NCBI GenBank assembly: GCA_002709835.1
Contig: PAQX01000019.1
Coordinates: 46,197-110,196, forward strand
Length of the DNA: 64,000 bases
Origin: Deltaproteobacteria bacterium
Lineage (GTDB): Bacteria > Myxococcota_A > UBA9160 > UBA4427
Direction: 5' to 3'
Shown: positions 1,123 to 29,524 of the stretch, in pieces
Numbering within the stretch: position 1 is the first letter of the stretch
Layout: each line of letters starts with the position of its first letter
The notes under the pieces: model-generated
What the model saw: the letters and a program-made list of their open reading frames with translations, nothing else
What the model was told of the DNA's origin: nothing
Databases searched by the model: none
Program-made: the position numbers and the translations under genes

Positions 1123-1135
1123 GCCGTTGCTCCGC

Positions 1136-4881: not shown

Positions 4882-4915
4882 CTAGCATAACGATCGGCGA
4901 TGACACTCGCTGCGA

Positions 4916-10170: not shown

Positions 10171-10316
10171 TGCGCGTCGTCCCCTCGTGTCGTGGATCCG
10201 GACCAGCGTAGCCGAGTGAGCTCCGATTCGGCCGTCATCCCCCTGGAACCCGCCGGTTTTGATGGCGCACGGGGGCAGCCGCCTCTTGCCCGATCGAGCT
10301 AGCCTCCGGCTCCGTC

Positions 10317-11949: not shown

Positions 11950-12026
11950 GCGCCGGTAGCTCAGCTGGATAGAGCATCAGGCTTCGAACCTGAGGGTCGG
12001 GGGTTCGAATCCCTCCCGGCGTGCCA
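11950..12026 (+). tRNA. tRNA-Arg (anticodon TCG)
   Basis: A 77-nt cloverleaf folded by hand. Acceptor GCGCCGG/CCGGCGT (G1-U72 wobble). D arm GCTC-AGCTGGATA-GAGC. Anticodon stem TCAGG/CCTGA with loop CTTCGAA. Variable loop GGGTC. T arm GGGGG-TTCGAAT-CCCTC. Discriminator G with an encoded CCA. Confidence 0.95.
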
Positions 12027-12756: not shown

Positions 12757-12997
12757 TCCAAGGGAGTCGTCGCTGTCGCCGACGACTTGAGCTGACTAAC
12801 AGATGGGGCATTTGCATGATCACCGAAGCAGACCGTGAGCATTTCACCCCTCACCTTCCCTTTCATACCGTTTCGAATCCCCCTAACCCCTTTTTCTCCC
12901 TAGATCTGGCATGAGGGTGACTTGTTTTCACCTGCATTATGTGTATCAATTGTGTGTAGATCCTTGCCCAACGCAAGGAAATTTGGGGGGTTTATTG

Positions 12998-13231
12998 ATG
13001 CTGGATCAGGTTCGAACTTTCCTTAGAACGGCAACTGAACTCGGGCTGCTTTTAGTGGCACTAGCCGTCGTACTTCAAATTCTGTTCGGCTCTGCCGTTC
13101 CATTTGTCGGAGGGGATGTCGTCGGAAACATCACGAGTTTGATTGGCTCGTTGGGCCAGCAGGGTCTCGTCGGGCTTATTGCTCTCTTGGTCATCGTTTA
13201 CCTGTTTCAAAGACAGCCTAGGGCGGCCTGA
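12998..13231 (+). CDS. small membrane protein, 2 predicted TM helices (77 aa), unknown function
   Basis: The ATG at 12998 is preceded by a GGGGGG run. The translation MLDQVRTFLRTATELGLLLVALAVVLQILFG...GLVGLIALLVIVYLFQRQPRAA has two hydrophobic spans. A strong terminator lies about 45 nt downstream. It sits in the AT-richer islet. Confidence 0.45.
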   Translation: MLDQVRTFLRTATELGLLLVALAVVLQILFGSAVPFVGGDVVGNITSLIGSLGQQGLVGLIALLVIVYLFQRQPRAA

Positions 13232-13314: not shown

Positions 13315-13763
13315 GAGGCCCGGCTTAGGCCCGCTGCGGAGCCGAGTCGTCGCTGAGGATCTTACGGAGCGCCTCGACCGCGTCCCGAGCGACGTTAAAA
13401 GTGGATGCGGGCACCGTCGAAGGCATTTTCTCCGCTGTGACTCTTCCCGTTCTCATTGAATGACTGAAATGGAAGAGTTCGGGGCTCCTCACTCAGGCCG
13501 TGCTCTAGGTATTGCCGGAGCCTGGCGTTGCGCTTTTGCTAGGACTCGGGGTTAGAGGTCTTTCGCTCAATCGGTCTTCGCGTCGACGGGGCCTCCCATG
13601 ACCAGAGGGGCCGACGGTCGCATCGGCCTTGAGCACTATTTCTATCCGGTCGATGGCACCTGTCAGGGATCCGAAGCCTATCGGGGCAGCTTCGGCTCTG
13701 GCGCGGTCTGCCCTTCGAGGTTTCCAGCCTCGAGCACCGCCCCTGAGTCGTCGAGGAGAGCAC

Positions 13764-14507
13764 ATGGCGAATAATATCTACCACGGGGTCGTTCGAACAC
13801 GCGACCAGATCACTCCCAACATGCTGCGCTTCTCGCTCGAGAGCGAAGCGTTAAGCGATTTCCCAGACGGCTTTGAAGGCGGCTACGTAAAACTCGTTTT
13901 CCCGCGACCCGAGGCGAAACGACCCGCCATGAGGTCCTATACCGTTCGCTCCTTCGATCGCGGTGCCCGACAAGTCACTCTTGAGATGGTCACGCATGGC
14001 GATCTCGGACCTGCGGGTCGTTGGGCCGAACGCGCGAAGCTCGGCGATTCCATCGTCTTCGCCGGGCCAGGGCCCTGCCGCTCCGCGGACCCGAGCGCTG
14101 ATTGGTTCCTGCTAGCGGGCGACATGACAGCTCTACCAGCGATCTCTGTTCAACTTGAGAACCTCCCGCCAAACGCCGTCGGCGATGCGGTGATCGAGGT
14201 CATCAGCGACGAAGACCGTCGAAAAATCATCCGACCCGACGGCATTGAGGTCCACTGGATCACGAATCCGGAGCCGGCGCGCCCGAACTCTTTGCTCGCC
14301 GATGCTGTGATGAATCTGCCCTGGCGATCCGGCAGAGTGTCTGCTTGGATCGCCAGCGAGTTCGCAAATGCACGCGCACTACGGCAGTACATGCGACACG
14401 ACCGGGCCGTCGACCGCGATTCGCTCTACGTGAGCTGCTACTGGAAGATTGGCGATACCGATGAGGGGATGAAGGCGGCGAAGGGCTCAGATTCGGAGTC
14501 CTGGTAG
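13764..14507 (+). CDS. siderophore-interacting protein (SIP/ViuB-type flavin reductase)
   Basis: The ATG at 13764 follows GGAGAG. It has the FAD-binding RxYT motif (MRSYTVRS), LLAGDMTALPAI, WIASEFANARALRQYM and YWKIG, which together give the FAD_binding_9 + SIP layout. The longer 292-aa ORF was rejected. Confidence 0.85.
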   Translation: MANNIYHGVVRTRDQITPNMLRFSLESEALSDFPDGFEGGYVKLVFPRPEAKRPAMRSYTVRSFDRGARQVTLEMVTHGDLGPAGRWAERAKLGDSIVFAGPGPCRSADPSADWFLLAGDMTALPAISVQLENLPPNAVGDAVIEVISDEDRRKIIRPDGIEVHWITNPEPARPNSLLADAVMNLPWRSGRVSAWIASEFANARALRQYMRHDRAVDRDSLYVSCYWKIGDTDEGMKAAKGSDSESW

Positions 14508-14543: not shown

Positions 14544-15935
14544 TCAGCTTGACACAGGCGGCTCGGAGAGCGTCCGCTCATCAGGGTTGAAGAAGCGCAA
14601 GAAGCGCCAAGCGATCACGATGGCTTTGAGCGCCTCTTCAAAGATCAGTACATACCAGAGGCCGATTACGCCGAGCTGCCGGTCGACACATAGCCACCAT
14701 GCGAGCGGAAGACTGATCCCCCACATCATGAGCTGGGTCGCGATCACCGGAACCCGAACGTCCCCCATCGTTTTGAGTGAGTGGAAGAGCACCGTGTTCA
14801 CTGCGCTGAGGGGCTGCACAAAAATGGTTAGCCAGAGCAGACGACTCGCCTCGGCGAGCACGACCGGGTCGTCAGTAAAAAGGCCGAGCAGCGGATCCGC
14901 GGAAAGATAGAGCGCGACAGCGAGCCCCGTCGTGAGCACCGTCGCAACCCAGGAAGCGTGGAATGCCGCCGCGAATACCGATTTTTTCCGACCTGCGCCG
15001 AACCGGTAGCCGACCATGACCTCGTTCGCCTGGCTGATCGCCATGAGTACGACGATCAGGAAAGAGCTCAGCGCGAGGGTGAACGAGCGCGCGAGAACCA
15101 TCGCGACGTCGAACCGCGCGATGAAGCTCACGAGAAACATCTGGTAGACGCCGTAGGCTAGATTGTCAGCAGTCGTTGGGAACGAGATTTCGAGGAGATC
15201 CTTCAGGGTCTGCTTGAGTTGCGCACCTTCGAGCCAATCCCGGATCCGAACGCCGAGACTGCGCCACAAGACGAAGAGCAGGACGAACATGCCCTGCACC
15301 CGGACGATCAGGGTGGCGATCGCCGAGCCCGCGACACCGAGTTCAGGAAAGGGGCCGAACCCGAAGATCAGGAGCGAGGCTGCCAGCAAGTAGAGGGCAT
15401 ACGCGAAGATGCCTAGGAAGAGCAGCATCCTCGTCCGCCCGAAGCCACGGAGCGTCGCGGTACCCGCCATCATGACGCCGTTGAAAACGATCGTCGCCGA
15501 CGCGATCTGGAGATAGAGGACCGTGTCCTCGAATATCTCCGCCGGTGTGTTGATCCACGCCGCCATCGTCCGACCGGCCAGCAAGAGCGCCGACCCGAGC
15601 ACGAGGCTGAGCACGAAGTTCGCCGCGACGGTCGTGAGCGCGATCGAACGCGCCGCGTCCGCGTCGCCACGCCCGAGGGCGCGCGAGATCAGCGCGACAC
15701 CTCCGACCGCAAAAAGGACCGACAGGTCGTAGGCGACCAGCAGAATCTGGTTCGCGAGGCTGACGGCCGCCGCTGCGTTCGCGGAGTAGGAGCTGATCAG
15801 GATCGTGTCGATCAGCGTCACGATCATGCCGATCCCGGCGTTCAACAGGAGCGGATAGCTCAGCTGGAAGAGCGTCTTGTCCACGGCCTCCCCGGCCGCG
15901 GCGCGCGCTTCCCCGGGCTCGGCATCGGCGCTCAT
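14544..15935 (-). CDS. MATE-family efflux transporter (463 aa)
   Basis: Starts at the ATG at 15935 (MSADAEPGEARAAAGEAVDKTLFQLSYPLLLNAGIGMIV...). About 12 hydrophobic segments are present. The start overlaps the NRPS stop as ATGA (15932-15935). The 623-aa version in the ORF track is an Arg/Gly-rich artefact. Confidence 0.9.
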   Translation of the reverse strand: MSADAEPGEARAAAGEAVDKTLFQLSYPLLLNAGIGMIVTLIDTILISSYSANAAAAVSLANQILLVAYDLSVLFAVGGVALISRALGRGDADAARSIALTTVAANFVLSLVLGSALLLAGRTMAAWINTPAEIFEDTVLYLQIASATIVFNGVMMAGTATLRGFGRTRMLLFLGIFAYALYLLAASLLIFGFGPFPELGVAGSAIATLIVRVQGMFVLLFVLWRSLGVRIRDWLEGAQLKQTLKDLLEISFPTTADNLAYGVYQMFLVSFIARFDVAMVLARSFTLALSSFLIVVLMAISQANEVMVGYRFGAGRKKSVFAAAFHASWVATVLTTGLAVALYLSADPLLGLFTDDPVVLAEASRLLWLTIFVQPLSAVNTVLFHSLKTMGDVRVPVIATQLMMWGISLPLAWWLCVDRQLGVIGLWYVLIFEEALKAIVIAWRFLRFFNPDERTLSEPPVSS

Positions 15936-18900
15936 TCTTCGTTCCCGAATCGGACCTGGGCCAGGACCGCGGCGAGCTCCGAGGCTTCCAGGTCGTGACC
16001 GGGCACGGGCGCGTCTCCACCCTCGAGACACGCCGCCACCAACGCCTTGAGCGCCTGAACGGCTTCGTCCGCCACGCGCTCGATCAAATCGGGAGCGAGA
16101 TCCGTCGCGACGAATTCCCATTCCATCGTGACTTCCCCGCCGGAGATCCAAGCATTCAAGTCGAGGCGATGGGGGCGCTCGTTCCCCGCCGCAGCGCGCG
16201 GGCCCGGGACCGGCTCCCGAGAGAGCCCCTGGTCGTTCCCGCGCCCCGCGTCGAGTTGGCCGAGGTAGTTGAACCCGACCGCGGGTCGAACCGCGAGTGC
16301 CTCGCCGCCTTCCGAATAGCGAAGCAAGCCGTAGCCGAGGCCCTCCGCGGGCACCGCCTCGAGGGCGGACCGGACGTGGCGAACCCGCTCGATCGGCGCG
16401 GCGTCCTCGGGCCACTCGGGAGTGAACGGATGGAGCGCGGTGAACCAGCCGACCGTGCGCGACGCGTCGTACAGGATCTCGAGATCGCGGGCGTCTCGCC
16501 CGTGGGTCTCGACGGCGAGCGTCGGGGGCGGCGCGCCCGTCGTCTCGGCGAGGGCCGTCGCGGCGGACGTGAGCAGGAGCGTATGCGGATCGAATTCCGT
16601 CGCCCGCGGAATCTCGCGGGTCAGCCGCTCGGTCTCCGCGACCGGGAGGCGGCGCGTGATCGTCTCGACATCGCCATATCGCGTCGGCGCCGGCTCGGGC
16701 GCGCCCGGCATCGCCGTCCGCGCTTCCGCCACGACCGCGCGCCAGTAGTCGCGCTCGGCCTCGACAAGGGGGCGTGCCGCGACGAGGGCCTCGCTCCAGG
16801 CGCGAAAGCTGACCCCGCCCTGCAAGACGGGCAGATCCGGGAAGCGATAGGCGTGGCTCAGATCGTCGAGCAGGATCCGCCAGGACACCCCGTCGACGAT
16901 CAGGTGGTGGACCACGAATACGAGCAGCGGCCCTGCGCGTTCACCGCGGTCGAAGAGCGCGGCGCGGACGAGCGGTCCCGCCGAGAGATCGAGGCCCGCG
17001 TGCATCGCCGCGATCGCCGCGTGGAGCTCTGCATTGGATGCTCCACGGACGCGCTCGATCTCGAACGTCCCGAGCGACTCGGCATGGAACTGGCGCCAGC
17101 CCTCGTCGGTTCGCTCGAAGCGGAGACGAAGCGCCCCATGGGCCTCGAAGGTACGACGCGTCGCCTCGGCGAGGGCATCCACGTCGACTTTCCGGGGCAA
17201 ACCGATCGCGACGGCCTGGTTGAAATGCGCGGGACGTTCGGCCGGCCGCTCCAGGAACCACGACTGGATCGGCGTGAGCGGTACTTCGCCTTCCGCCGGC
17301 GGGGCCTCGGCGGGGACCGGGTTCGCGCGCCCGGCGACGAGCGCGAGCTCTTCGACCGTCTGGTACTGGAAGACGTCCGCTGGCGTGAGTCCCAGTCCGG
17401 CGCGGGCCGCAGCGCTCACGATCTGAAGCGCGATGATCGAGTCGCCGCCCGCCTCGAAGAAGTTGGTCTCGCGCCCGAGCGTCGGCTCGGGGAGGAAGGC
17501 GCGCCAGATCCCGAGCAGCGCGTCTTCGGTCGGGCTCTCTCCCTCGCTCGCGCCGGCCTCGACCGCGGACTCGGAGAAGGTCGGTCGGGGGAGCGCCTCG
17601 ATATCGACCTTGCCGTTCGGACCGAGGGGGAACGCGTCGACCCAGGTAAAGGAAGCGGGCATCATCTGCCGCGGCAGACGCGCGAGCAATTCGACCCGGA
17701 GCGAAGCCGAGGACGGACGAACGGTGTCCTCCGCCGGCAAGAGCCAGGCGACGAGCCGCCGCTCCGAGGCGGAGTCGCCCTCCGCACGGACCACCGCGTC
17801 GGCGATCGCCTGGTTCGAGACGAGGGCGCTCTCGATCTCGCCGGGTTCGATCCGGAAGCCCCGGACCTTCACCTGGTCGTCGATCCGACCGAGGAATTCG
17901 ACCACGCCATCCCTTCCGAACCGAACCCGGTCGCCCGTTCGATAGAGCGTGAGCGCGGCATCGTCGATCGCGTCGCGGCGCGGATCCAGGAAGGGGTTCG
18001 GGACGAAACGCTCGGCGGTCAGGGCCGGGCGCCGATGATAGGCGCGCGCCAACCCGTCTCCGCCGAGATAGAGCTCGCCGGGCACGCCCGGCGGAACCGG
18101 CTGCATCGACTCGTCGAGCACATAGACCTGCGTGAACCCGATCGGTCGACCGATCGGCGCGCTCGGCAGATCCGAACCCGGCGCGAGCTCGCTCGGCTCG
18201 AACCGATGGCAGCAGGTGAACGTCGTCCCCTCGGTCGGCCCGTAGCCGTTGATCAGTCGCGTGTTCGGCAGCGCCGCCTGCGCACGCCGAAGATGATCGA
18301 CCGAGAGCACGTCGCCCCCGGCGAGCAACTGCCGGACCGTCGCGAAGCGCTCGAGTCCATCGTCGACGACGAGGTGGAAGAGGCCAGCGGTCAGCCAGAG
18401 CGTCGTCACGCCGTGGTTCTCGACCAGCCCGCCGAGGGTCTCTAGCGCGAGCGGGCCCGACGTCTCCGCGTCCGGCAGGACGAGACAGCCGCCGTTCAGG
18501 AGCGGGCCCCAGATCTCGAGCGTCGACGCGTCGAAACCCATCGGCGCGGCGCCCAGGAAGACCTCGTCCGGACCGAAGTCGACGAAGCGATCCTGCTTCA
18601 CGAGACGCGTCACGCCGCGGTGGGGCACGGCGACGCCCTTCGGCGTTCCGGTCGAGCCCGAGGTGTACATGAGATAGGCGAGTCGATCGGGGCCCGAGGA
18701 GACCGCGAGCAAGGCATCCGCCGCCGCGTCGCCCGTGGACGGAACCGACGCGAGACAGAGCCACTCCGCCGCGAACGCTTCGGGGGCCGAGGCCCGGGTC
18801 GCGGACACGATCGTGCGAAGGTCCGCGTCCTCGATCGTCCACGCGATCCGAGCGGTCGGAAGACTCGTGTCCAGGGGAACGTAGACGCCGCCGATCTGGA

Positions 18901-21900
18901 GGGTCGCGATCATCGCCGCGATCGAATCGACGTGCCGCTCGGCCCAGAGCCCGACCGCCTGCTCGGGCCCGACGCCGCGCTCCGCGAGCGTCCGAGCGAT
19001 CGCGTCGGCCCGCCCTGCAAGTGCGCGGTAGGAAACGACCGCGTCGCCCTGACGAAGCGCGACCGCGTCCGGGGCCCGGGCGACCTGCTCGGCGAAGAGC
19101 GCGTGGATCGATTCGCGCGGACCGCGCGCGGTCTCCGCCGACCCGCCCCAGCGCGCGAGGGTTTCGGTCGCGGCTTCGTTCAGCAGTCCGAGGTTCGAGA
19201 GTCGAAGATCGACCGCGCCCGGAAGCCGCTCGAGGAAGTCGCCGAAGAGCGACACGAAGCGTTCGATCGTGCGCCGCTCGAAGAGATCCGTCCGGTATTC
19301 CAACTGACCGGCCAGCGCCTCCGGCGTCTCGCTCATCGTGAGGGTCCAATCGAACTTCGCCGTTCCGCTCTCGAGAGGCAGTGGGCGCCATTCGAGCCCT
19401 CCGACCTCGACCGCCTCGAAGGGCGCGTTCTCGAGGGTGAAGAGCACCTGGAAGGCCGGCGCGTGGCTCGCGCTGCGCGGCACCTCGAGCGCCTCCAGGA
19501 CCTGCTCGAAGGGCGCGCTCGCATGTTCGAAGGCCGCCAGGGTCATCGACCGCACGCGCTCCAGGATCTCGGTGAAGGCGGGATCGCCGTCGAGGTCGAC
19601 CCGAAGGACGAGGGTGTTCACGAAGAGCCCGATCAGGGATTCGACGTCGGGATGATTCCGGTTCGCGACCGGCGTGCCGATCGCCAGGTCCGTCTCCCCG
19701 GTCATGCGGTGGAGCGCCGCGGCGAAGGCCGAGAGCAGCGTCATGAAGAGGGTCGTGCCCTCACGCCGGGCGAGCGCCTGCAGCGCGTCGCCGGTCTCGC
19801 GCGAGAGCGTGAATCGAACCGTGTCGCCCTCGCCCGACGCTTCGACCGGGGGCGTGAAATCCGTCGGGAGCGAGAGGCGCGCGGGCAGACCGGCGAGGTG
19901 TCCCCGCCAGTAGTCGACGTGGCCGGAAACGTCGGCGTCTCGCGCCCAGGCGGTGTAGTCCGCGTACTGGATCGGCAGCGGCGGGAGCGAGGCGGCGTTC
20001 CCCTGCGCGCGGAATCCGTCGTACAGCGTCGCGACTTCGCGCACGAGGATCCCGATCGACCACCCGTCGACGAGGATGTGATGACAGTGGAAGACGAGAA
20101 CGTGCCGCGTGTCCGAGAGAGACAGGACCGTCATCCGCCAGAGCGGCGGATTGGCCAGGTCGAAGGGCTCGCGCGCGGCGCGGACCATCCAGTCCCGAAG
20201 CGCCGTCTCCCGGGCTTCGTTCGTCTCGCCTTCGATGAACGTCCGCCCGACGCGCACGGGAGACGAGGACGAGAGGACCGACACGAGCTCCCCGCCGCGC
20301 TCCTCGAAGTGGGTGCGCAGCATCTCGTGCCGATCGACCACGGTCTGCATCGCGAAATCGAGCGCGGCGAAGTCGATCTCCCCGTCGATCGAGATCGCCG
20401 TGGGGATCCCGTAGAGCGGGCTCTCGGGCGCGAGCTCCGCGAGGAGCCACTGGCGACGCTGCGCGTCGGAGACGGGTCCGAGCCCCTCCGGTCGCTCCGT
20501 TCGCGGAATCGGCGTCTTCGCATCGACCCCGACGTCCAGGGTCTCGACCGCGTCGGCGAAATCGTCGAAGCGCGAGTGCTCGAAGAGAACGCGCAAGGGA
20601 ATCTCGGTTCCGAGGAGCTGGGAGAGGCGCGAGACCAGACGGGTCGCCGTCAGCGAGTGACCGCCCAGCTCGAAGAAGTCGTGGTCGGCGTCGACCTCCG
20701 GGACGTCGAGCAGCTCGCAGAAGACGCCGGCGATCAACTGCGCCCGCGGCGAGCGCTCGCGGGTCGAGGCCAGACCCTCGGCGGGCGCGCCGACCTCCGA
20801 CGCGCCATCCGCCTGGCCGAGGAGGGCCCGCCGGTCGATCTTTCGATTCGGCGTGAGCGGGAAGGCATCCACCGCGAGGAAGCGCGCGGGCACCATGTAG
20901 TCTGGCAAGCGTTCGCGCAGGTCCCGCCGAAGGGCGGCCGGGTCGAGGCGTTCGGAGGCGCGAAGGAACGCGACCAGGCGCGCACCTGACGTCCCCGCTT
21001 CCTGGAGCAGCACGACGGCCTCGTCGACGTCCGATCGCGCGAGCAGGACCGCTTCGATCTCGCCGAGCTCGATCCGGAAGCCGCGTAGCTTGACCTGCGA
21101 GTCCATGCGCCCCACGAAGTCGAGCAGGCCGTCTTCGCGACGCCGGACGAGATCCCCGGTCCGGTAGAGACGCGTCGGCGCCCCGTCCCCGGCTTCCACT
21201 TCGAGGAAGCGGTCGTCCGTCAGTTCGGCGCGCTGCCAGTAGCCCGCGCTCAGGCCTTCGCCGCCGATCAACAGCTCGCCCAGGGCGCCGACGGGCACGC
21301 GTCGAAGCGCGGGATCGACGACACGGAGTTCGGTCTCGGCGATCGGGGGACCGATCGGCACGAACTCGCCCGAGGCGAGCGTCTCCTCTATCCGGAGCGC
21401 CGCAGACCAGATCGTCGTCTCCGTCGGACCGTAGAGATTCCACAGTTCGGCGGATCGCTCGAGGAGCGATCGCGCCAGATCGCCCGGCAGGGCTTCGCCG
21501 CCACAGAGCACACGCAGAGACGCCCTTCCCTTCCAGCCGCTCTCGACGAGCAGCCGCCAGGTCGCGGGCGTGGCCTGCATGACGGTGACGGCCTCGCGGA
21601 CGAGCCCTTCGATCAGTCGCGGCCCGTCTCGCGCTTCCTCCGCACTCGCCAGCACGACGCGTGCGCCGACCGTGAGCGGAAGCAGAAGCTCGAGGATCGA
21701 GATGTCGAAGGAGATCGTCGTGACCGCGAGCAGCACATCGTCCGCGCCGAGCCCGGGTTCCCGCGCCATGGAAGCGAGGAAGTTCTCGAGCGCACCGTGG
21801 GAAATCGCGACACCCTTCGGCTTCCCCGTGCTGCCGCTCGTATAGAGGACGTACGCCAGCGCGGCGCGGTCGACGGTCGGCAAGGTCTCCACTCGCGGCG

Positions 21901-23698
21901 CGTCGGCCGTCTCTTCGGCCAGATCGAAGAGCGGAACGGCGCCCAGGGCAACCGCGGCCCGCGCCGTCTCCCCCTCGTGCAGGACGAGATCGAGGGCGGC
22001 GTCTTCCGCGATGAACGCCAGGCGATCCTCGGGGTGGTCGGGCGCGAGCGGGACGAAGGCCGCGCCCGTCTTCAAAACCGCGAGCATCGCCAGCGGGAGC
22101 GACGCCGTCCGTTCTAGAAAGAGACCGACGCGCTGGCCGGGGCCGATCCCGGCGACGTGCACGAGGTGCGCCGCGAGCCGCGTCGATTCACGGGCGAGCG
22201 TCGCGGAGCCGAGAGCGACCGAGGCCCCACCCTGCCCTTCGGCGACCACGGCGATCGCCTCTCCGCGCGACACGGCGATCGCGTCGACCTGTGCGAAGAC
22301 ACGGTCCCCGGACGCCGGCGCGGCCGCACCTTGCTCCCACGCCGCCAGTTGGCGCCGCTCTTCCGGCGCGAGCATCGAAAGCGTATCGAGGGCACGCTCC
22401 GGATCCTGCGCGAGCCCTTCGGCGATCGACGCGAGGAGGGTCTCGAGATGTCCGCACAAGCGCGCGACAGCCGAATCGCCCATACGCGCCCGCTCGAAGC
22501 GCGCCTCGACCCGAAGCCGCTCCCCGGGATGCACGAAGAGCGAGAGCGGGTAGTTCGTCCGCTCGAAGCCCCCCGGATCCTCGAGGGCGATCCCGAGATC
22601 GAGCCCCTGGATCGCCGCGTCGATCGAGACCGGATAGTTCTCGAAGACGAGCAGCGTGTCGAAGAGCGGCACGCCGGTCGGCACGTCGGTCAGACGCTGG
22701 AGATCGATCAGGGAGGCGTGGGCGTGTTCGTCGCGATGGGACTGCTCTGCGTGGAGCGCGCGCAGCCAGGGAAGCAGGGCTTGCCCGGTCCCGGTATCGA
22801 CCCGAACCGGAACCGTGTTGAGGAAGAGCCCGACGATCTGCTCCGCGCCGGGTAGCGCCGCGGGTCGCCCGGAGACCGCCGCGCCAAAGAGGACGTCTTC
22901 GGTTCCCGTCATGCGGCCGAGCAGGAGCGCGAGGGCCCCCTGGAAGAGCGTGCTCAACGTGAGTCGGTGCTCCTTTGCCGCTCGCTCGAGGGAAGCGCTC
23001 AGGTCGGCGTCGAGTTCGCGCGTCACGGTCGCGTAGCCCGACGACCCGTCGCCCCCGGGCAGGTCGAGGGCGCCCGGAGATTCGACGCCTTCGAGGGCGT
23101 GGCGCCAGTAGTCCTGCTCCCGAGCGGCGTCCCGACTGTGGAGCCAGTCCACAAAGCTTCGATAGGGAACCGGCGCGGGGAGCGTGACCGGCGCCCCCTG
23201 CGTCGTGCCCCGGTAGGCCTGCATGACCTCGCGCAGCAGGAGCCCGTTGCACCAACCGTCCATCAGCAGGTGATGATGTGTCCAGACGAATCGCCACCGA
23301 TCGTCGGCCAACCGGAAGAGCGCACAGCGCATGAGCGGCGCTCGATCGAGCTCGAATCCGCGCCGGCGATCGTCTTCGAGGAAGCGCTCCAGTCGTGCCG
23401 CCTGGCCCGCCCGGTCGTCGCGCCAGTCTTCTTCGAGCCAGGGAAGCGCCAGCGCGTCGAACACCGCCTGAAGCGGCTGCTCCATGTCCTGCCAGTGGAA
23501 CTCGGTCCGCAGGACGGCGTGCCGGTCGACGACTTCCTGCCAGGCCGCGTGGAACGCTTTCGTGTCGAGCGCGCCCGCGATCTCGCACCAACGCTGCTCG
23601 ACGTAGACGCCGCTCTCGGGCGAGAGCAGCGAATGGAAGAGCATTCCCGACTGCATGGGCGCCAGGGGATAAGCGTCGACCAGCGTGGATCCGGCCAT
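15932..23698 (-). CDS. NRPS, two modules: C(DCL)-A(Gly)-T-C(LCL)-A(Val-like)-T-E (2588 aa)
   Basis: Starts at the ATG at 23698 (a TGATG junction with the upstream stop). Motif order: YPLAPMQSGMLFH and HHLLMDGWC; LAYVLYTSGSTGKPKGV with hand-read code DILQLGLIWK; FFELGGHSLTATRL; SDAQRRQWLL and HHILVDGWS; LAYLMYTSGSTGTPKGV with code DALWLGGTFK; FFEAGGDSIIALQ; then the E-domain motifs PIQSWF, HHLIVDGVSW, ETHGRD, RTVGWFT, FNYLGQ. No TE or R domain. Confidence 0.95.
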   Translation of the reverse strand: MAGSTLVDAYPLAPMQSGMLFHSLLSPESGVYVEQRWCEIAGALDTKAFHAAWQEVVDRHAVLRTEFHWQDMEQPLQAVFDALALPWLEEDWRDDRAGQAARLERFLEDDRRRGFELDRAPLMRCALFRLADDRWRFVWTHHHLLMDGWCNGLLLREVMQAYRGTTQGAPVTLPAPVPYRSFVDWLHSRDAAREQDYWRHALEGVESPGALDLPGGDGSSGYATVTRELDADLSASLERAAKEHRLTLSTLFQGALALLLGRMTGTEDVLFGAAVSGRPAALPGAEQIVGLFLNTVPVRVDTGTGQALLPWLRALHAEQSHRDEHAHASLIDLQRLTDVPTGVPLFDTLLVFENYPVSIDAAIQGLDLGIALEDPGGFERTNYPLSLFVHPGERLRVEARFERARMGDSAVARLCGHLETLLASIAEGLAQDPERALDTLSMLAPEERRQLAAWEQGAAAPASGDRVFAQVDAIAVSRGEAIAVVAEGQGGASVALGSATLARESTRLAAHLVHVAGIGPGQRVGLFLERTASLPLAMLAVLKTGAAFVPLAPDHPEDRLAFIAEDAALDLVLHEGETARAAVALGAVPLFDLAEETADAPRVETLPTVDRAALAYVLYTSGSTGKPKGVAISHGALENFLASMAREPGLGADDVLLAVTTISFDISILELLLPLTVGARVVLASAEEARDGPRLIEGLVREAVTVMQATPATWRLLVESGWKGRASLRVLCGGEALPGDLARSLLERSAELWNLYGPTETTIWSAALRIEETLASGEFVPIGPPIAETELRVVDPALRRVPVGALGELLIGGEGLSAGYWQRAELTDDRFLEVEAGDGAPTRLYRTGDLVRRREDGLLDFVGRMDSQVKLRGFRIELGEIEAVLLARSDVDEAVVLLQEAGTSGARLVAFLRASERLDPAALRRDLRERLPDYMVPARFLAVDAFPLTPNRKIDRRALLGQADGASEVGAPAEGLASTRERSPRAQLIAGVFCELLDVPEVDADHDFFELGGHSLTATRLVSRLSQLLGTEIPLRVLFEHSRFDDFADAVETLDVGVDAKTPIPRTERPEGLGPVSDAQRRQWLLAELAPESPLYGIPTAISIDGEIDFAALDFAMQTVVDRHEMLRTHFEERGGELVSVLSSSSPVRVGRTFIEGETNEARETALRDWMVRAAREPFDLANPPLWRMTVLSLSDTRHVLVFHCHHILVDGWSIGILVREVATLYDGFRAQGNAASLPPLPIQYADYTAWARDADVSGHVDYWRGHLAGLPARLSLPTDFTPPVEASGEGDTVRFTLSRETGDALQALARREGTTLFMTLLSAFAAALHRMTGETDLAIGTPVANRNHPDVESLIGLFVNTLVLRVDLDGDPAFTEILERVRSMTLAAFEHASAPFEQVLEALEVPRSASHAPAFQVLFTLENAPFEAVEVGGLEWRPLPLESGTAKFDWTLTMSETPEALAGQLEYRTDLFERRTIERFVSLFGDFLERLPGAVDLRLSNLGLLNEAATETLARWGGSAETARGPRESIHALFAEQVARAPDAVALRQGDAVVSYRALAGRADAIARTLAERGVGPEQAVGLWAERHVDSIAAMIATLQIGGVYVPLDTSLPTARIAWTIEDADLRTIVSATRASAPEAFAAEWLCLASVPSTGDAAADALLAVSSGPDRLAYLMYTSGSTGTPKGVAVPHRGVTRLVKQDRFVDFGPDEVFLGAAPMGFDASTLEIWGPLLNGGCLVLPDAETSGPLALETLGGLVENHGVTTLWLTAGLFHLVVDDGLERFATVRQLLAGGDVLSVDHLRRAQAALPNTRLINGYGPTEGTTFTCCHRFEPSELAPGSDLPSAPIGRPIGFTQVYVLDESMQPVPPGVPGELYLGGDGLARAYHRRPALTAERFVPNPFLDPRRDAIDDAALTLYRTGDRVRFGRDGVVEFLGRIDDQVKVRGFRIEPGEIESALVSNQAIADAVVRAEGDSASERRLVAWLLPAEDTVRPSSASLRVELLARLPRQMMPASFTWVDAFPLGPNGKVDIEALPRPTFSESAVEAGASEGESPTEDALLGIWRAFLPEPTLGRETNFFEAGGDSIIALQIVSAAARAGLGLTPADVFQYQTVEELALVAGRANPVPAEAPPAEGEVPLTPIQSWFLERPAERPAHFNQAVAIGLPRKVDVDALAEATRRTFEAHGALRLRFERTDEGWRQFHAESLGTFEIERVRGASNAELHAAIAAMHAGLDLSAGPLVRAALFDRGERAGPLLVFVVHHLIVDGVSWRILLDDLSHAYRFPDLPVLQGGVSFRAWSEALVAARPLVEAERDYWRAVVAEARTAMPGAPEPAPTRYGDVETITRRLPVAETERLTREIPRATEFDPHTLLLTSAATALAETTGAPPPTLAVETHGRDARDLEILYDASRTVGWFTALHPFTPEWPEDAAPIERVRHVRSALEAVPAEGLGYGLLRYSEGGEALAVRPAVGFNYLGQLDAGRGNDQGLSREPVPGPRAAAGNERPHRLDLNAWISGGEVTMEWEFVATDLAPDLIERVADEAVQALKALVAACLEGGDAPVPGHDLEASELAAVLAQVRFGNEE

Positions 23699-26600
23699 CA
23701 GCGCGACCCCACGCGTGACAGGAGTTTGTCGAGGCTGCCGCGATCGACGCCCTTCGCATCGAGCTCCGGCGTCGGGCTCACCGCCACGGGTTCCGCGCGG
23801 ACGGACATCGAATGGAGCATCGCGCCGTGCCGCTCCGCCACCCGCTCGATCGTCGCGCGGGCGACCGCGTCGGAAGCGAAGCGCCAACGCAGCGTGAGTC
23901 GCCCCGCGTCGACGAGCGCCACCACCTCGACCCGAACGCCCGTCGGATTGCCGGCTGCGCGCAGAGAGGGCAGCGGTCGAGCGTCCAGCGCGCCGAAATC
24001 CTCGCCACCCGCGACGGCGGCCCCCGCGCGACCGAGATAGTTCAGCTGGACCTCGGCCGGGGATTGCACGCCCTCTCGGCCCTGCTTCGCCAACACACCG
24101 AAGCTCAGGCCCTGATGCGGTGCTTCCGCGATCTGCCTCCGCGCTTCACCGACCGGCGAGGCATCCGCCCCCCTCGGCACGCGCAGCCGGACGGGATGAC
24201 GGCTCGTGAACCATCCGGTCGTCCGCATGAGGTCGATTCCCGGATCGAAGGCGTGTCGACCGTGGCCCTCCACGTCGATCACGACCTCTTCGACGTCGGC
24301 CCACCGGCAGAGCGCATGCCCGAGCGTCGCGGTGAGGACCGCGTCGACCCCGTTCGGTCCCTGGGCCTCTGATGAGGCGAGAACGCCTTCCGTCCGATCC
24401 GACTCGAGGCTCACGACCACTTCTTCGATGCGCGCGTTCCCCGCCCCCTCCTTGGGCGCCGGGTCCCAGGGAAGCGCGGGGACCGGACGACAGACGTCCA
24501 CCCAGTGGCGCTGGGCCGCTTCGATTCCGTCGAGGCCTTCGTCCAGATGCTCGATCCAGGAGGCAAAGCTCGACGTCTTGGACGGAAGCGAGATCGCCTC
24601 GCCGCTTCCGAGCTGTGCGCACGCGAGCCGAAGGTCTTCGACGATCAGCTTCATCGACCACGCGTCGACCGCCCAGTGATGGGCGAGCAACAAGAGCCGA
24701 TCGGGCTCGCCGTCCGGCATCGCATAATGAAGCGCGCGGAAGACGCGGCCCGCCGCGAGATCGAACGTTCGCTGGGCCTCGGTGATGCGTGCCTCGAGCT
24801 CCGCAGCCGCCCGGGGCGACGCCGAAAGATCGAGGCCCTCGAAAACCGAACCGATCTCTTCCGTCGACCGATATCGCTGGCGCAGGGGCGACTCCCCGAC
24901 CCATTGCAAGCGGAGCGAATCGTGGTGGGCCACGATCGCCGCGACCGCCCGGTCGAGGATCTCGGGCGCAATCGGCGCAGTCAGGGAGAGCAGCACTCCG
25001 TGATTCTCGTGGTCGAGATCGCCGTCCGTCGCGTTTCGCACGCGCTCGAAGAACGCGGCCTGGATCGGCGACAAGGAGAAGGCGCCCTCCGGAAGCGCGA
25101 GCCCGAGGGTCACGTGCTCGTCGAGCGCCCGGGCGACCCGCGCCTGCCCGGCGACGGTCTGATTCTCGAAGAGTTGCCGCGGGGTGAGGTGGAGACCGGC
25201 TTCCCGTGCGAGGCCGATGATCTGGATCCCTGTGATCGAGTCGCCGCCGAGCTCGAAGAGATTCGCGTCGAGCGCAACGTCCTCGCGGCCGAGTGCTTCC
25301 TGCCAGCAGGCCAGCAGCTGCGCTTCCGCTTCGGTCTCCGGCGCCCGGGGCGCGCCCGCCGAGACCGTGGATACCGTCGGCAGAGCCTTTCGGTCGACCT
25401 TTCCGTTCGGCGTCAGGGGAATGTGATCGATCGCTTCGATCCGGTGTGGACGCATCGAGGTCGGCAGGGTCTCGGCCATCCAGTCCGGGAGGGCCGCTGC
25501 GACCGCTTCGGAATCCGCTTCGGACGCGAAGAACGCGACGAGCTGCGGAACGCTGGCCGGCGTCTGGACGACGACCGCCCCCGCGTCGACGTCCGGATGG
25601 GCGAGCAGCCGCGACTCGACCTCGGCCAACTCGACACGAACCCCGTTCAACTGGACCTGCTCGTCGAGCCGCCCGAGGTAGAGCAGGACGCCGTCCTCTC
25701 GCCAGACCACCCGGTCCCCGGTCCGGTAGAGCGTTTCGCTTCCCGCCCCCTCGGCGCCGCGGAACGGGTTCGGCACGAATCGCTCCGCCGAGAGCCGAGG
25801 ACGATCGAGATAGCCGCGGGCGACACCGGGCCCACCGATGTAGAGCTCGCCCGGCACGCCGATCGGACAGAGCTCCCCCCACCGATCTAGCACGTAGAGC
25901 GCCACCCCATCGATCGGTCGGCCGATCGGGAGGTTGCCCGTGTCCGCCGGCCCGACCTCGTGCACGCAACAGCCGACGACCGCTTCGGTCGGGCCGTACT
26001 CGTTGAGGAGCGCCGCGTCGGGCGCTTCGCGCCGCCACGTCTCGACATGGGCCGCGGTCAGCGCCTCGCCCCCGATCACGAAGGCGCGCGGCGCGCGTCC
26101 CGGATCGAGTCCGTCCGCGAGGAGCGGCGGCAGCGCTCGAAGATGGGCGGGCGTGAGCTTCACCACGCCCGGGCGACCGATCGGCGGATTCGCCAACTCG
26201 TCCGCAAGCGCCGCGAGGTCATCGTCGTCGGAGACGAGATGGACCATCGCCCCGGCGACGATCGGAGCGAAGAGCGCGGTCAAGGTCGCGTCGAATCCGA
26301 TCGACCCGTGGACGGGCGCGCCATAGCCCTCGTCGATCGGATAACGCCGCCGGCACCAGTCGAGGTAATGCGCGAGCCCCGCGTGGTGGATCATCGTGCC
26401 CTTCGGCCGACCACTCGAGCCCGACGTGTACATGACGTAGGCGAGTTGCTCCGGTCGCAGCGCCGGGAGGGCCTCGTCCTCCTCTACCGACGCCGCTTCG
26501 AGGTCCGCGAGGCCGACTGCGCCCTCCCCCATGACGAGACGACACCCCGCGTCCTCCGTCATGAACCGCAGGCGCGCCTCGGGCAGCTTCGGATCGAGCG

Positions 26601-28437
26601 GGACGAACGCGGCCCCTGCGCGCAGGACCCCGAGGAGCGCCACGAGCAGATCGACCCGCCGTGGCAGACGGATGCCGACCCGGTCTTCGGCGCCGATCCC
26701 CCGAGCGGCGAGCCCCCGGGCGACGCCGCGCGATCGCGCTTCGAGTTCCTCGTACGTGAGACTCTCCCCGTCCGCGTCCCGCGCCGCGATCGCCGAGGGC
26801 GTCCGTTCGGCCTGCGCGACGAAGGACTCGGGGAGCGTCGCCTGCGCGAGCGGCGGGGCCTCGTGTCCTTGCGCGAACGCGAGGAGCCGCGCTCGCTCGT
26901 CGGGCGAAACCGGCGTGAGGTCGGCGAGCCGCGCAGTCGGTGTCTCTGCGATCGCCTCCAGAAGACGCTCGAAATGCTTCGCCATCGTTTCGGCGAACGC
27001 TTCTTCGAAGAGCGAAGACCGGGTTTCGATCGCGACCAGTAGCCCGTCGTCCCGATCCAGCAGATGCCAGCTCATGTCGAACTTCGTCTGGTTCATCGTG
27101 ACCGCGTGCTGGGTGATCGCCAGATCACCGAGGGCGACTTCGGGCGTGGCGGCGTTCTGGGTCCGATACCCGTCCGTCTGCGCCTGGAACATGATCTCGA
27201 AGAAGGGATTACGGGCCCCCTGGCGCGGCGGCGCGCAGGCGTCGACGACGTCCGCGAAGGGCACCCGCTGGTGTTCGAGGGCGCCCACGACCGAGTCCTT
27301 TACCGCACCGAACCAATCCGAGAGGCGCCCCTCGTCCGCGATCTCGAAACGGGTCCGCACGACGAGGGTGTTCACGAAGAAGCCGACGAGAGAAAGCGCC
27401 CGCGGATCGGTGCGCCCGCCGACCGGGACGCCGACGGCGAGGTCCGTCTCGCCGGTGTAGCGGTGGAGCAGGAGCTTGAACGCCGCCAGCAGGAACATGA
27501 AGTAGGTGAGGCCCGAGCGGCGAGCGATCTCTTTGAGGGATTCGTTCAGGGCCGGCGGCAGGGTCGCGATGAACGTTTGGCTGCGGAAGCCGGCCTCCGC
27601 CGGGCGCGGACGGCCCGTCGCGAGTTCGAGGGGCTCCAGTCCCTCGAGCTGCTTCGCCCAGTAGTCGAGCTCTCGCTTCGCTTGAGGGGACTCCCGAAAG
27701 GCGCGCTCCGCGAGGACATGATCGGCGTAGTGCCACTCGAGCGGTGACAGGACCGCGCCTAGATCCTCCCCCTCGCCGCCGGTCGCCGCGCGGTAGTAGG
27801 CGGCGAGCTCCGTCATGAAGAGCCCCCGAGACCATCCGTCCGCGACCAGATGATGGAGCACGACGACCACCACCACGTGATCTTCCGCGACACGCATCGG
27901 GGCGATCCGCAGCAGCGGTCCCTGCGAGAGGTCGAAGGCGAGATCCGCCAGCGCGCACGCCCGGCCGCGAACCCATTCAGGAAGGCCTTCCACGCCCACC
28001 GAGCGGTCTGCGTGGCCCGGCACGTCCTCCCACTCCAGGGGAACCGCGACCTCCTGGTGCACATCCTGGTAGGGACGCCCCTCCTCTCCCATCGGGAACG
28101 CCGTGCGGAGCGATTCGTGTCGCGCAACGAGCGCCGCGAACGCACGCTCGAGTGCCGCTTCATCGAGGGCACCACGCAGGGACCAGGCGAAGGGAATGTG
28201 ATAGGCGGTGAGCCCGGGAATGATCTGATGGAGGACCCATACCCGAGACTGCGCCGCGGAGAGCGGAAGGCGCGCCGGTCTTTCGTGGACAGGCTCAGGC
28301 GCCGGTGCCTCTTCGGGCTCGAGCAGAGACGGATCGATCCCCTGCCCGATCAGCCGCTCTCGGAGCAGCTCACGTTGGGCCGGGGCGAGCGATGCAATTC
28401 GCTCCTGCAGTGCGGCGATCCTCTTCGGGTCCATCAT
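23698..28437 (-). CDS. NRPS, one module: C-A(Asn)-T-E (1579 aa)
   Basis: Has a helical N-terminal leader (MMDPKRIAALQERIASLAPAQRELLRERL). C domain: LPLSAAQSRVWVLHQ and HHLVADGWS. A domain: LAYVMYTSGSSGRPKGT with hand-read code DATKVGEVGK, the canonical Asn code. T domain: LFELGGDSITGIQ. E domain: SPIQAAFF, HHWAVDAWS, EGHGRH, RTTGWFT, LNYLGR. Confidence 0.95.
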   Translation of the reverse strand: MMDPKRIAALQERIASLAPAQRELLRERLIGQGIDPSLLEPEEAPAPEPVHERPARLPLSAAQSRVWVLHQIIPGLTAYHIPFAWSLRGALDEAALERAFAALVARHESLRTAFPMGEEGRPYQDVHQEVAVPLEWEDVPGHADRSVGVEGLPEWVRGRACALADLAFDLSQGPLLRIAPMRVAEDHVVVVVVLHHLVADGWSRGLFMTELAAYYRAATGGEGEDLGAVLSPLEWHYADHVLAERAFRESPQAKRELDYWAKQLEGLEPLELATGRPRPAEAGFRSQTFIATLPPALNESLKEIARRSGLTYFMFLLAAFKLLLHRYTGETDLAVGVPVGGRTDPRALSLVGFFVNTLVVRTRFEIADEGRLSDWFGAVKDSVVGALEHQRVPFADVVDACAPPRQGARNPFFEIMFQAQTDGYRTQNAATPEVALGDLAITQHAVTMNQTKFDMSWHLLDRDDGLLVAIETRSSLFEEAFAETMAKHFERLLEAIAETPTARLADLTPVSPDERARLLAFAQGHEAPPLAQATLPESFVAQAERTPSAIAARDADGESLTYEELEARSRGVARGLAARGIGAEDRVGIRLPRRVDLLVALLGVLRAGAAFVPLDPKLPEARLRFMTEDAGCRLVMGEGAVGLADLEAASVEEDEALPALRPEQLAYVMYTSGSSGRPKGTMIHHAGLAHYLDWCRRRYPIDEGYGAPVHGSIGFDATLTALFAPIVAGAMVHLVSDDDDLAALADELANPPIGRPGVVKLTPAHLRALPPLLADGLDPGRAPRAFVIGGEALTAAHVETWRREAPDAALLNEYGPTEAVVGCCVHEVGPADTGNLPIGRPIDGVALYVLDRWGELCPIGVPGELYIGGPGVARGYLDRPRLSAERFVPNPFRGAEGAGSETLYRTGDRVVWREDGVLLYLGRLDEQVQLNGVRVELAEVESRLLAHPDVDAGAVVVQTPASVPQLVAFFASEADSEAVAAALPDWMAETLPTSMRPHRIEAIDHIPLTPNGKVDRKALPTVSTVSAGAPRAPETEAEAQLLACWQEALGREDVALDANLFELGGDSITGIQIIGLAREAGLHLTPRQLFENQTVAGQARVARALDEHVTLGLALPEGAFSLSPIQAAFFERVRNATDGDLDHENHGVLLSLTAPIAPEILDRAVAAIVAHHDSLRLQWVGESPLRQRYRSTEEIGSVFEGLDLSASPRAAAELEARITEAQRTFDLAAGRVFRALHYAMPDGEPDRLLLLAHHWAVDAWSMKLIVEDLRLACAQLGSGEAISLPSKTSSFASWIEHLDEGLDGIEAAQRHWVDVCRPVPALPWDPAPKEGAGNARIEEVVVSLESDRTEGVLASSEAQGPNGVDAVLTATLGHALCRWADVEEVVIDVEGHGRHAFDPGIDLMRTTGWFTSRHPVRLRVPRGADASPVGEARRQIAEAPHQGLSFGVLAKQGREGVQSPAEVQLNYLGRAGAAVAGGEDFGALDARPLPSLRAAGNPTGVRVEVVALVDAGRLTLRWRFASDAVARATIERVAERHGAMLHSMSVRAEPVAVSPTPELDAKGVDRGSLDKLLSRVGSR

Positions 28438-28450
28438 CCGCCGCCGTGTC

Positions 28451-29524
28451 TCAGGCCGCGTCGTTCGCGGTCGGCCCCGCGCCCGCGTCGACGCGCTTCT
28501 TCAGCCCGGCGAGATGCGGGAGGGATGCCATCACGACGTCGTAGTCCTGGACGAAATCGATCAGACAACAGACTTCGTCGATCCCGATCGACTCCATCTC
28601 CCGAACGAAGGGCAGGCAGCCCTCGGGCGTCCCGATCAGGGAGCGGTTGCGCATGAAGCCTTCGACCCCGAAATCGAGGACCGCCGAAAGGTCGTCGTCG
28701 CTGAAGTCGTCCAGGCTCACGTCGAGCCCCATTCCTTTCGCGAGGTTCTCGAGGAGCCCGTAGTGGGTCTTCAGGTACTCCCGGAAGGGCTCGCGAATGT
28801 CGCGTTTCACGGTCTCTTCGTCGTCGCCCAGGAAGGTGTGCATCATGAGCGAGACCGTGCCCGCCGCCGGGTCGTGCCCCGCCGCGCTCCTCGCCTCCCG
28901 GTACTTTCCGATCTGCTCGGCCACGTTGTCGAGGCTTTCGCCGAGGACCGAGGTCAGGATGTTCACGCCGAGCCGCCCCGCTTCGACGAAAGTCTCAGCG
29001 GACTGACAGGTGATCCAGATCGGAAGCTCCGGCTGAATCGGTCGCGGCAGCGTCTTCGCTTCGACCAGACGTCCGGCCGCGTCTTCGAACTCGACCGCTT
29101 CGCCGCGCCAGAGCCGCCGGACTTCGTCGAGACTCCGCCACATGAGTCCACGACGGCTGCCGTGGGGCTCCGAAGAAAGGATGAACTCGTCCATCGTCCA
29201 CCCGGTCGCCGCGGCCATCGCGACGCGCCCTCCGGACAGGTTGTCGACCACCGCCCAGTCCTCCGCGACGCGCACGGGATGGTGGAGCGGCAGCACGACG
29301 CTGCCGGCGCGCAACTGCACGTTCTCCGTAATCATCGCGAGGGAAGCCGCCGTAAGAGCCGGGTTCGGATAGAGTCCGCCGAACGCATGAAAATGACGCT
29401 CGGGCGTCCAGATCGCGACGAGGCCTTCGCGATCAGCGAAGCGCGCGGCGTCCTGAATGAGTCGGTAGTGATCGTCCCCGACCGCGGATCCGTCGCCGTC
29501 GAAGAAGAAGAGGCTGAACTGCAT
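28451..29524 (-). CDS. LLM-class (luciferase-like) flavin-dependent monooxygenase, free-standing
   Basis: 357 aa, MQFSLFFFDGDG...WTPERHFHAFGGLYPNP...GRVAMAAATGW. It resembles the luciferase-like monooxygenase domain that is often embedded in PKS/NRPS proteins. It is wedged between the last PKS and the first NRPS with gaps of 11 and 13 nt. Confidence 0.9.
   Translation of the reverse strand: MQFSLFFFDGDGSAVGDDHYRLIQDAARFADREGLVAIWTPERHFHAFGGLYPNPALTAASLAMITENVQLRAGSVVLPLHHPVRVAEDWAVVDNLSGGRVAMAAATGWTMDEFILSSEPHGSRRGLMWRSLDEVRRLWRGEAVEFEDAAGRLVEAKTLPRPIQPELPIWITCQSAETFVEAGRLGVNILTSVLGESLDNVAEQIGKYREARSAAGHDPAAGTVSLMMHTFLGDDEETVKRDIREPFREYLKTHYGLLENLAKGMGLDVSLDDFSDDDLSAVLDFGVEGFMRNRSLIGTPEGCLPFVREMESIGIDEVCCLIDFVQDYDVVMASLPHLAGLKKRVDAGAGPTANDAA

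Follow-up and report, generated by a model that had tools for sequence, protein, structure and literature searches.

The window (the whole stretch of DNA analysed, 64 000 nucleotides) carries genes of a hybrid type I polyketide synthase (PKS)-non-ribosomal peptide synthetase (NRPS) pathway. The subject of this analysis was the first of its NRPS proteins, NRPS1, which has condensation (C), adenylation (A), thiolation (T) and epimerization (E) domains and is expected to form an acyl-D-Asn unit. NRPS1 probably serves as an ordinary elongation module where polyketide passes into peptide in one large, split hybrid lipopeptide assembly line of an uncultured marine bacterium, most likely a member of the Myxococcota, and the acyl-D-Asn would be retained in the product. 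The preliminary description had taken acyl-D-Asn together with a MATE-family exporter as the hallmark of a prodrug pathway of the colibactin type. It allowed either an ordinary lipopeptide, which is favoured here, or a prodrug whose activating peptidase lies outside the window. An acyl-D-Asn start alone does not identify a prodrug pathway; what sets such a pathway apart is a starter C domain together with a ClbP-type peptidase, and neither was seen in the sequence covered. The prodrug reading was considered unsupported because the C domain of NRPS1 is not of the starter type, the S12-fold protein of the window is an esterase-type enzyme beyond the probable cluster edge, no ClbP-like gene was found in the sequence searched and the MATE protein is distant from ClbM.

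The window is GC-rich (~0.59-0.71) and was matched at 99.8-99.9% DNA identity by six marine metagenome contigs, TARA Oceans assemblies among them. On the minus strand, a single tight operon runs from the FAAL-ACP gene to the MATE gene; neighbouring genes lie no more than 33 nt apart, and in several places stop and start codons overlap. Its genes are the following.

49161-51368, minus strand: FAAL-ACP loading protein, a fatty acyl-AMP ligase with a carrier domain (Pfam AMP-binding and PP-binding; NCBIfam fatty-acid--AMP ligase models, E 1e-121).
41634-49157, minus strand: PKS1, KS-AT-DH-cMT-ER-KR-ACP, with a malonyl-type AT (HAFH).
34192-41637, minus strand: PKS2, KS-AT-DH-cMT-ER-KR-ACP, with a malonyl-type AT; its start overlaps the PKS1 stop (ATGA).
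29536-34158, minus strand: PKS3, KS-AT-KR-ACP, expected to leave a beta-hydroxyl on the chain.
28451-29524, minus strand: MupA/Atu3671-family FMN-dependent luciferase-like monooxygenase (TIGR04020, E 9e-148).
23698-28437, minus strand: NRPS1, an N-terminal docking helix, C-A(Asn)-T-E and a COM-donor-like tail (approximate domains: C 26881-28269, A 25399-26817, T 25141-25320, E 23803-25095).
15932-23698, minus strand: NRPS2, C(D-specific)-A(Gly, DILQLGLIWK)-T-C-A(Val-like, DALWLGGTFK)-T-E; its ATG overlaps the NRPS1 stop.
14544-15935, minus strand: MATE efflux transporter (Pfam MatE; TIGR00797, E 4.5e-48), translationally coupled to NRPS2 by overlap of its ATG with the NRPS2 stop (ATGA).

The features that mark a hybrid type I PKS-NRPS system were present: a lipid-loading protein, PKS modules of the cis-AT type, carrier domains in the NRPS modules and colinear operons. 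The HAFH motif, which denotes malonyl specificity, was found in every AT of these PKS modules. Malonyl units are therefore expected, and the methyl branches would come from the two C-methyltransferase (cMT) domains, those of PKS1 and PKS2. A methyl-branched chain built by three PKS modules had been described, correctly. The MupA-family monooxygenase is kept in two relatives, L095 (92% identity) and L096 (75%).

Pfam recognized AMP-binding, AMP-binding_C, PP-binding and two stretches of Condensation in NRPS1. The second condensation-family stretch carries the complete set of epimerase motifs (PIQAAFF, HHWAVDAWS, EGHGR, RTTGWFT, GLSFG and LNYLG). The A-domain code was read as DATKVGEVGK by alignment to GrsA-PheA; as a control, the code of the GrsA reference sequence itself (DAWTIAAICK) was recovered. 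These results confirmed the C-A-T-E organization and the Asn code first extracted by hand. An ungapped motif reading of ClbN, from the clb island of E. coli CFT073, gave DLTKVGEVGK, which agrees with the NRPS1 code at 9 of 10 positions. In vitro, ClbN generates the N-acyl-D-Asn motif (PMC8264950). When the NRPS proteins were scanned with NCBIfam, generic models alone were returned, with no ClbN-specific match.

In three orthologues of NRPS1 (51-76% identity), the code is again DATK(V/I)GEVGK, the E domain again has HHxxxDA, and the C-terminal tail is kept. In comparisons with the PDB, the best matches of the first C domain of NRPS2, at E 1e-112 to 1e-68, were C domains located after an E domain, from McyB, PvdL, bacitracin synthase 3, SrfA-C and TycB, whereas TycC and LgrA, whose C domains we take to be of the LCL type, were matched at just ~1e-18 to 1e-21. 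Since this domain resembles C domains placed after E domains, D-Asn is expected as its donor residue. By its E motifs, conserved code and D-specific downstream C domain, the predicted acyl-D-Asn intermediate is well supported, and with it the earlier proposal that the nascent chain starts as N-acyl-D-Asn.

The C domain of NRPS1 was compared with the starter C domain of ClbN and shared 23% identity with it (51-68 bits); none of the six C domains of the cluster scored above 84 bits with the ClbN domain. The NRPS1 domain groups with elongation C domains and is preceded, in the same operon, by FAAL-ACP and three PKS modules. Judged from these alignments and this gene order, NRPS1 is not an initiating module and its C domain is not starter-type. 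The MATE protein shared only 23% identity with ClbM (E 4e-4), and exporters of this family occur commonly in gene clusters of many different types.

The S12-fold protein and the two elements that separate it from the cluster are as follows.

10317-11606, plus strand: S12-fold family VIII-type carboxylesterase, outside the cluster and not ClbP-like.
11950-12026, plus strand: tRNA-Arg(TCG) (ARAGORN).
12037-12462, minus strand: tyrosine-recombinase remnant directly beside the tRNA-Arg (open reading frame (ORF) translation with an R..HxxR..Y C-terminus).

The GC content dips to 0.59 over 12-14 kb, at the tRNA/integrase site. The tRNA-Arg and the integrase remnant are the probable left edge of the cluster or of an island; together with the GC dip, the truncated recombinase beside a tRNA gene suggests that the cluster lies on an integrated island. 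A second 'tRNA-Arg' reported by ARAGORN at 44622-44717 on the minus strand was rejected as almost certainly a false positive (96 nt, inside PKS1).

Among the coding-looking ORFs of both flanks (those with coding-like GC content at third codon positions), the S12 protein was the sole Beta-lactamase-fold match in Pfam. Its best PDB matches were the esterases EstA (5GKV, 2e-40) and 5GMX, and its best NCBIfam match was the LipL esterase. ClbP was not among its PDB matches at an E-value cut-off of 0.001, and tblastn with ClbP gave no match to it at E<=10. Features that define the ClbP family include the SxxK and YxS/T motifs (PMC9889268). The S12 protein has SSGK (SxxK) at residues 69-72 and Y-x-[NST] nowhere; in ClbP, used as a control, the same motif search found S95-x-x-K and Y186-A-S. 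Hydropathy analysis revealed one central stretch (residues 210-237) and no hydrophobic end, so that neither a signal peptide nor a C-terminal transmembrane (TM) triad is present; for ClbP the same scan recovered residues 7-33 and three C-terminal segments. The preliminary description had placed this hydrolase outside the cluster and denied it both membrane features, and the hydropathy profile and the tRNA/integrase boundary bear this out.

A ClbP-like peptidase was then sought by tblastn with CFT073 ClbP. No match at E<1 was obtained in the window, in 87 loci (1.1 Mb) or in an 8.2-kb extension of the window on the TARA scaffold L008. Together with the Pfam scan of coding-looking ORFs, this upholds the statement that no ClbP-like peptidase is seen in the window, and the search beyond it that had been proposed earlier, as run on the L008 extension, gave no match either. 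In relatives that carry the NRPS1-NRPS2-MATE cassette, the best tblastn match to ClbP was a 24-residue stretch in L090 (E 0.029 with L090 alone, E 0.43 pooled); their gene tables contain no PF00144, and no Beta-lactamase-fold gene was found within 10 kb beyond MATE.

The MATE gene does close the minus-strand operon, as had been described, but it is not the end of the pathway. NRPS2 terminates in T-E and has no thioesterase (TE), reductase (R) or terminal C domain. The line therefore most likely continues in the divergent plus-strand operon, with NRPS3, NRPS4, PKS4 and NRPS5. NRPS4 is cut by the window end, and the window by itself is misleading as to the end point of the pathway, since the line runs beyond it. 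The plus-strand genes are listed below.

51874-55284, plus strand: NRPS3, a TubC_N docking domain and C-A(DGPTLGAVNK)-T, probably the last module; divergent from the FAAL gene.
55281-58451, plus strand: single-ORF fusion of a CmlA-like diiron beta-hydroxylase, a TubC_N docking domain and a thioester reductase (Pfam CmlA_N 3e-73, TubC_N, NAD_binding_4 8e-63; TIGR01746 1.8e-97).
58448-59302, plus strand: SAM-dependent methyltransferase; best NCBIfam match a daptide-type methyltransferase, far under the model cut-off.
59218-60774, plus strand: class III (GSA-like) aminotransferase, start codon uncertain.
60832-61056, plus strand: MbtH-like protein (PF03621, 7e-20).
61078-61563 and 61563-62192, plus strand: two adjoining SfmD-like haem peroxidase genes (PF27188, from precomputed annotation only; the local Pfam copy gave no match).
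62195-64000, plus strand, continued on L008 from 701: NRPS4, truncated by the window end (seen by six-frame translation, the ORF list leaving out frames open at the end); in full on L008, C(D-specific type)-A(Gly, DILQLGVIWK)-T.

Scaffold L008 is 99.9% identical to the window over a 2.5 kb overlap and carries the NRPS4-NRPS5 stretch at 701-10698. It adds the remainder of NRPS4, PKS4 (KS-AT-KR-ACP) and NRPS5 (at least 2112 aa, cut at the contig end). In all, the cluster was taken to extend no less than 12 kb beyond the window. All assemblies of the source organism end within NRPS5, and the right side of the cluster was covered to that point. In relatives, NRPS5 reads C-A(Ala)-T-Cy-A(Cys)-Ox-T and is the final gene of its operon (relative at ~51% identity). 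A protein search seeded with the NRPS5 fragment gave mostly generic NRPS matches, and two relatives were still obtained. A scan of JGI metagenomes returned 71 loci, six of which (L017-L022, 48-52% identity) were examined; all are lower-GC marine contigs. Those with upstream sequence share PKS4 ahead of NRPS5, and an SfmD-like gene is also present in two. SfmD-like homologues lie immediately upstream of an NRPS4-like gene in L007, L015, L017 and L020; the pair in the window hints at a hydroxylated tyrosine-type building block.

The order of the proteins was approached through their C domains and termini. In an all-against-all comparison of the six cluster C domains, the first C domain of NRPS2 and that of NRPS4 were mutual best matches (253 bits), while the other four formed the elongation group. 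Both proteins that end in an E domain (NRPS1 and NRPS2) carry a short tail resembling COM donor helices, and both partner C domains (NRPS2-C1 and NRPS4) begin with YPL(A/T)P(M/T)Q.GMLFH. This motif is that of GrsB, TycB and SrfA-C, with which the PDB matches of NRPS2-C1 agree. In the cyanobacterial locus L016, the tail of an E-terminated NRPS resembles that of NRPS2; the next gene, on the strand of that NRPS, encodes a C-A-T protein that shares the YPLSPTQQGMLFH start, and PKS and NRPS genes come after it. NRPS1 and NRPS5, both downstream of a PKS ACP, have a similar N-terminal helix. Every plus-strand NRPS begins with a C domain, and no loading module is encoded on that strand; each of these proteins therefore requires an upstream donor. 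A release function is present in the thioester reductase domain, which belongs to a protein of its own, equipped with a TubC_N docking domain, and would serve this chain. The same hydroxylase-docking-reductase fusion occurs in L007 (75% identity); we know of no described example of such a trans-acting fusion of tailoring and release. From these features, the overall order is likely to be FAAL, PKS1-3, NRPS1, NRPS2, NRPS4, PKS4, NRPS5, NRPS3 and the docked hydroxylase-reductase.

Conservation was examined in related contigs. A Myxococcota metagenome-assembled genome (MAG), GCA_039187915.1, holds both halves of the cluster on two contigs at 69-92% identity. The cassette [C-A-T-E][C-A-T-C-A-T-E][MATE], with C-A(Asn)-T-E, was found in at least five other marine contigs, with a GC content from 40% to ~67%; their MATE homologues are 50-65% identical, and one of these contigs comes from a Verrucomicrobiales MAG. 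None of the genes of the left flank of the window recurs beside the cassette in relatives. An apparent discordance of L001 after NRPS1 was traced to shadow ORFs and dismissed, blastn showing L001 to be colinear with the window at 99.9%.

In the proposed assembly line, FAAL-ACP would load a fatty acid. PKS1 and PKS2 would each add a malonyl unit, C-methylate it and reduce it fully, and PKS3 would add a further malonyl unit and leave its beta-hydroxyl, giving approximately a 3-hydroxy-4,6-dimethyl fatty acyl chain. This chain would be joined by NRPS1 to Asn, epimerized to D-Asn, and NRPS2 would add Gly and D-Val. The intermediate would then pass to NRPS4 (Gly) through a COM-like E-to-C contact, and on to PKS4 (KS-AT-KR-ACP) and NRPS5, which in relatives would add Ala and then a Cys-derived thiazole. 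NRPS5 would hand over to NRPS3 by docking through the TubC-type domain, and NRPS3 probably loads an aromatic residue. The fused hydroxylase-reductase would dock on NRPS3, beta-hydroxylate the tethered residue and release the chain as an aldehyde, from which the aminotransferase and methyltransferase may give an N-methylated amine. The product would be exported by the MATE protein, and acyl-D-Asn would remain in the final lipopeptide, where it would provide the lipid anchor and the first residue.

Several points weigh against this proposal. Retention of acyl-D-Asn was deduced solely from the absence of a peptidase, and the product is a prediction from genes. The order past NRPS2 is based on C-domain type, tail motifs and the gene order of one relative. 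NRPS5 was partly seen, its Ala-Cys(thiazole) content being taken from the relative at ~51% identity. The sequence covered stops short of the right end of the cluster and of the rest of the genome. That the acyl group is made at some cost by PKS modules is no bar in itself to its later removal, and a prodrug system, too, would be expected to show an acyl-D-Asn-forming NRPS pair recurrently and tightly coupled to MATE.

A genuine N-acyl-D-Asn prodrug system, in which the exported lipopeptide would be cleaved behind D-Asn by a peptidase of the ClbP family, encoded past NRPS5 or at an unlinked site, was judged very unlikely. The near-identity of the Asn code to that of ClbN would suit it, as would the E domain with its D-specific downstream C domain, the translational coupling of MATE to the NRPS genes and its conservation with them in relatives, and a right end of the cluster that lies beyond the available sequence. 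It is opposed by the lack of ClbP-like sequence in the window, the L008 extension, ~1.1 Mb of loci and five cassette relatives (10 kb past MATE), by the non-starter type of the NRPS1 C domain, by an acyl donor that is the product of a three-module PKS and not a plain fatty acyl, and by the low identity between MATE and ClbM. Known ClbP homologues are reported mostly from Firmicutes, with some from Proteobacteria (PMC9889268). Removal of lipid-D-Asn by a non-ClbP hydrolase, either CAAX-protease-like as in didemnin or another membrane or secreted enzyme, was given hardly any weight. Unrelated hydrolases do serve other prodrug pathways, for example DidK in didemnin (PMC10811503). The left flank encodes an alpha/beta hydrolase (4916-6187) and a D-aminoacylase-like amidohydrolase (2497-4203); however, both sit past the tRNA/integrase boundary and have no homologues beside the cassette in any relative, and both were rejected as processing enzymes. 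D-aminoacylases cleave free N-acyl-D-amino acids and not an internal peptide bond, which also counts against this route, and the cluster genes yielded neither a CAAX-like enzyme nor any other membrane hydrolase. In a broader form of the same idea, which we regard as quite improbable, the PKS-made branched beta-hydroxyacyl-D-Asn, Gly-D-Val and the coupled MATE would form a pro-moiety system, lipid-D-Asn being removed after export by an unlinked or non-S12 hydrolase. If true, the acyl-D-Asn prodrug strategy would also be in use among marine Myxococcota, Verrucomicrobiota and other phyla, the cap being a polyketide instead of a fatty acid.

The two operons might instead belong to separate pathways, the minus strand making an acyl-D-Asn-Gly-D-Val lipotripeptide with unseen or spontaneous release and the plus strand something else. 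Divergent operons could have separate regulation, and several relatives show the NRPS1-NRPS2-MATE cassette alone; but NRPS2 has no TE, R or terminal C domain, the plus-strand NRPSs all start with C and lack a loading module, the NRPS4 C domain and the first of NRPS2 pair as one D-specific type, both halves co-occur in the second MAG (GCA_039187915.1) and L099 has more NRPS genes convergent on its MATE gene. This separation was considered unlikely. It is still less probable that the building block is not D-Asn, through a misread code or an E domain inactivated by HHxxxDA instead of HHxxxDG. Specificity codes are predictions, and the E2 motif HHWAVDAWS does have A in place of G. Against this, the code is 9/10 identical to that of ClbN and is kept in orthologues at 51-76% identity, both His, the Asp and the Glu of EGHGR are intact, the DA variant occurs in all orthologues examined and the following C domain is of the D-specific type. 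A single split line with acyl-D-Asn retained thus remains the preferred explanation.

The cluster most likely represents an uncharacterised marine lipopeptide-polyketide family. If the single-line explanation is true, no new biosynthetic principle is involved; the unusual fused hydroxylase-docking-reductase release protein and the recurrent cassette make the cluster a reasonable target for heterologous expression.

Other genes were noted at the left of the window. Between 1597 and 10170 lie genes for a TauD dioxygenase, a SnoaL-like protein, an alpha/beta hydrolase (macrolide-esterase-like), a sulfotransferase, a fatty-acid hydroxylase and an SDR; this run of tailoring-like genes has the look of a small-molecule locus of its own. 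The amidohydrolase at 2497-4203 (minus strand) is closest to N-acyl-D-amino-acid deacylases (1M7J, E 5e-43), which makes it an odd gene to find near an acyl-D-Asn pathway. A 106-aa ORF (12911-13231, plus strand) with a strongly hydrophobic C-terminal half lies in the low-GC spacer that separates the integrase remnant from the following gene. That following gene (13629-14507, plus strand) encodes a siderophore-interacting protein (SIP) and adjoins MATE; it is not conserved in relatives. In the relative L097/L098 (11375-21356), an Asp/Asn beta-hydroxylase gene, an MFS gene and TonB/ExbB/ExbD lie downstream of MATE, and one MATE homologue is named 'siderophore biosynthesis protein' by NCBI. The product family might be an amphiphilic siderophore.

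Comparison with known systems was made on gene content and module order. No named natural product or characterised cluster could be fitted to this gene set and module order, literature search included. The cluster resembles colibactin (ClbN/ClbP/ClbM) and its homologues (xenocoumacin XcnA/XcnG, zwittermicin ZmaO/ZmaM, amicoumacin, paenilamicin and edeine) in an A(Asn)-T-E that makes N-acyl-D-Asn and in a MATE-family gene within the same operon. It differs in that ClbN is an initiating module, whose starter C domain uses fatty acyl-CoA (PMC8264950), whereas the C domain of NRPS1 is elongation-type and receives its chain from a PKS ACP. The colibactin-type systems also possess an S12 peptidase with a three-helix TM domain, which was not seen here in the window, the extension and the relatives searched; ClbM is only 23% identical to the MATE protein, and their hosts are Firmicutes and Proteobacteria, while the present host is probably a member of the Myxococcota.

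Other parts of the cluster recall systems of other kinds. In saframycin biosynthesis, the haem peroxidase SfmD carries out tyrosine 3-hydroxylation; the likeness here is in SfmD-like genes (two in the window, matched by precomputed Pfam annotation only) beside MbtH and NRPS genes. A Pictet-Spengler-type module or other saframycin genes were not evident, although no search was aimed at them. Myxochelin is made with the MxcG reductase and the MxcL aminotransferase, and in daptides a C-terminal amine is formed. The reductase domain of the window matched the MxcG model at 1e-76 and is followed by a class III aminotransferase and a methyltransferase, the latter with the daptide methyltransferase as its best, sub-threshold match; these scores are well under the equivalog cut-offs. 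The succession of reductase, aminotransferase and methyltransferase suggests an aldehyde, then an amine, then an N-methyl amine.

In the chloramphenicol pathway, CmlP (A-T-R) acts with the CmlA beta-hydroxylase. A CmlA-family diiron beta-hydroxylase, predicted to act on a carrier-tethered amino acid before reductive release, is common to both; here, in contrast, one fused protein holds the hydroxylase and the reductase on either side of a TubC-type docking domain, and both would act in trans on the NRPS3 carrier. In cyanobacteria and myxobacteria, hybrid PKS-NRPS lipopeptide pathways that are primed by a FAAL follow a puwainaphycin-type logic, in which the lipid is kept in the product. The present cluster is like them in its FAAL-ACP, cis-AT PKS modules that extend the fatty acid, NRPS modules of the lipid-keeping kind, and MbtH and tailoring genes, and differs in being split over two divergent operons and in having a separate reductase for release.

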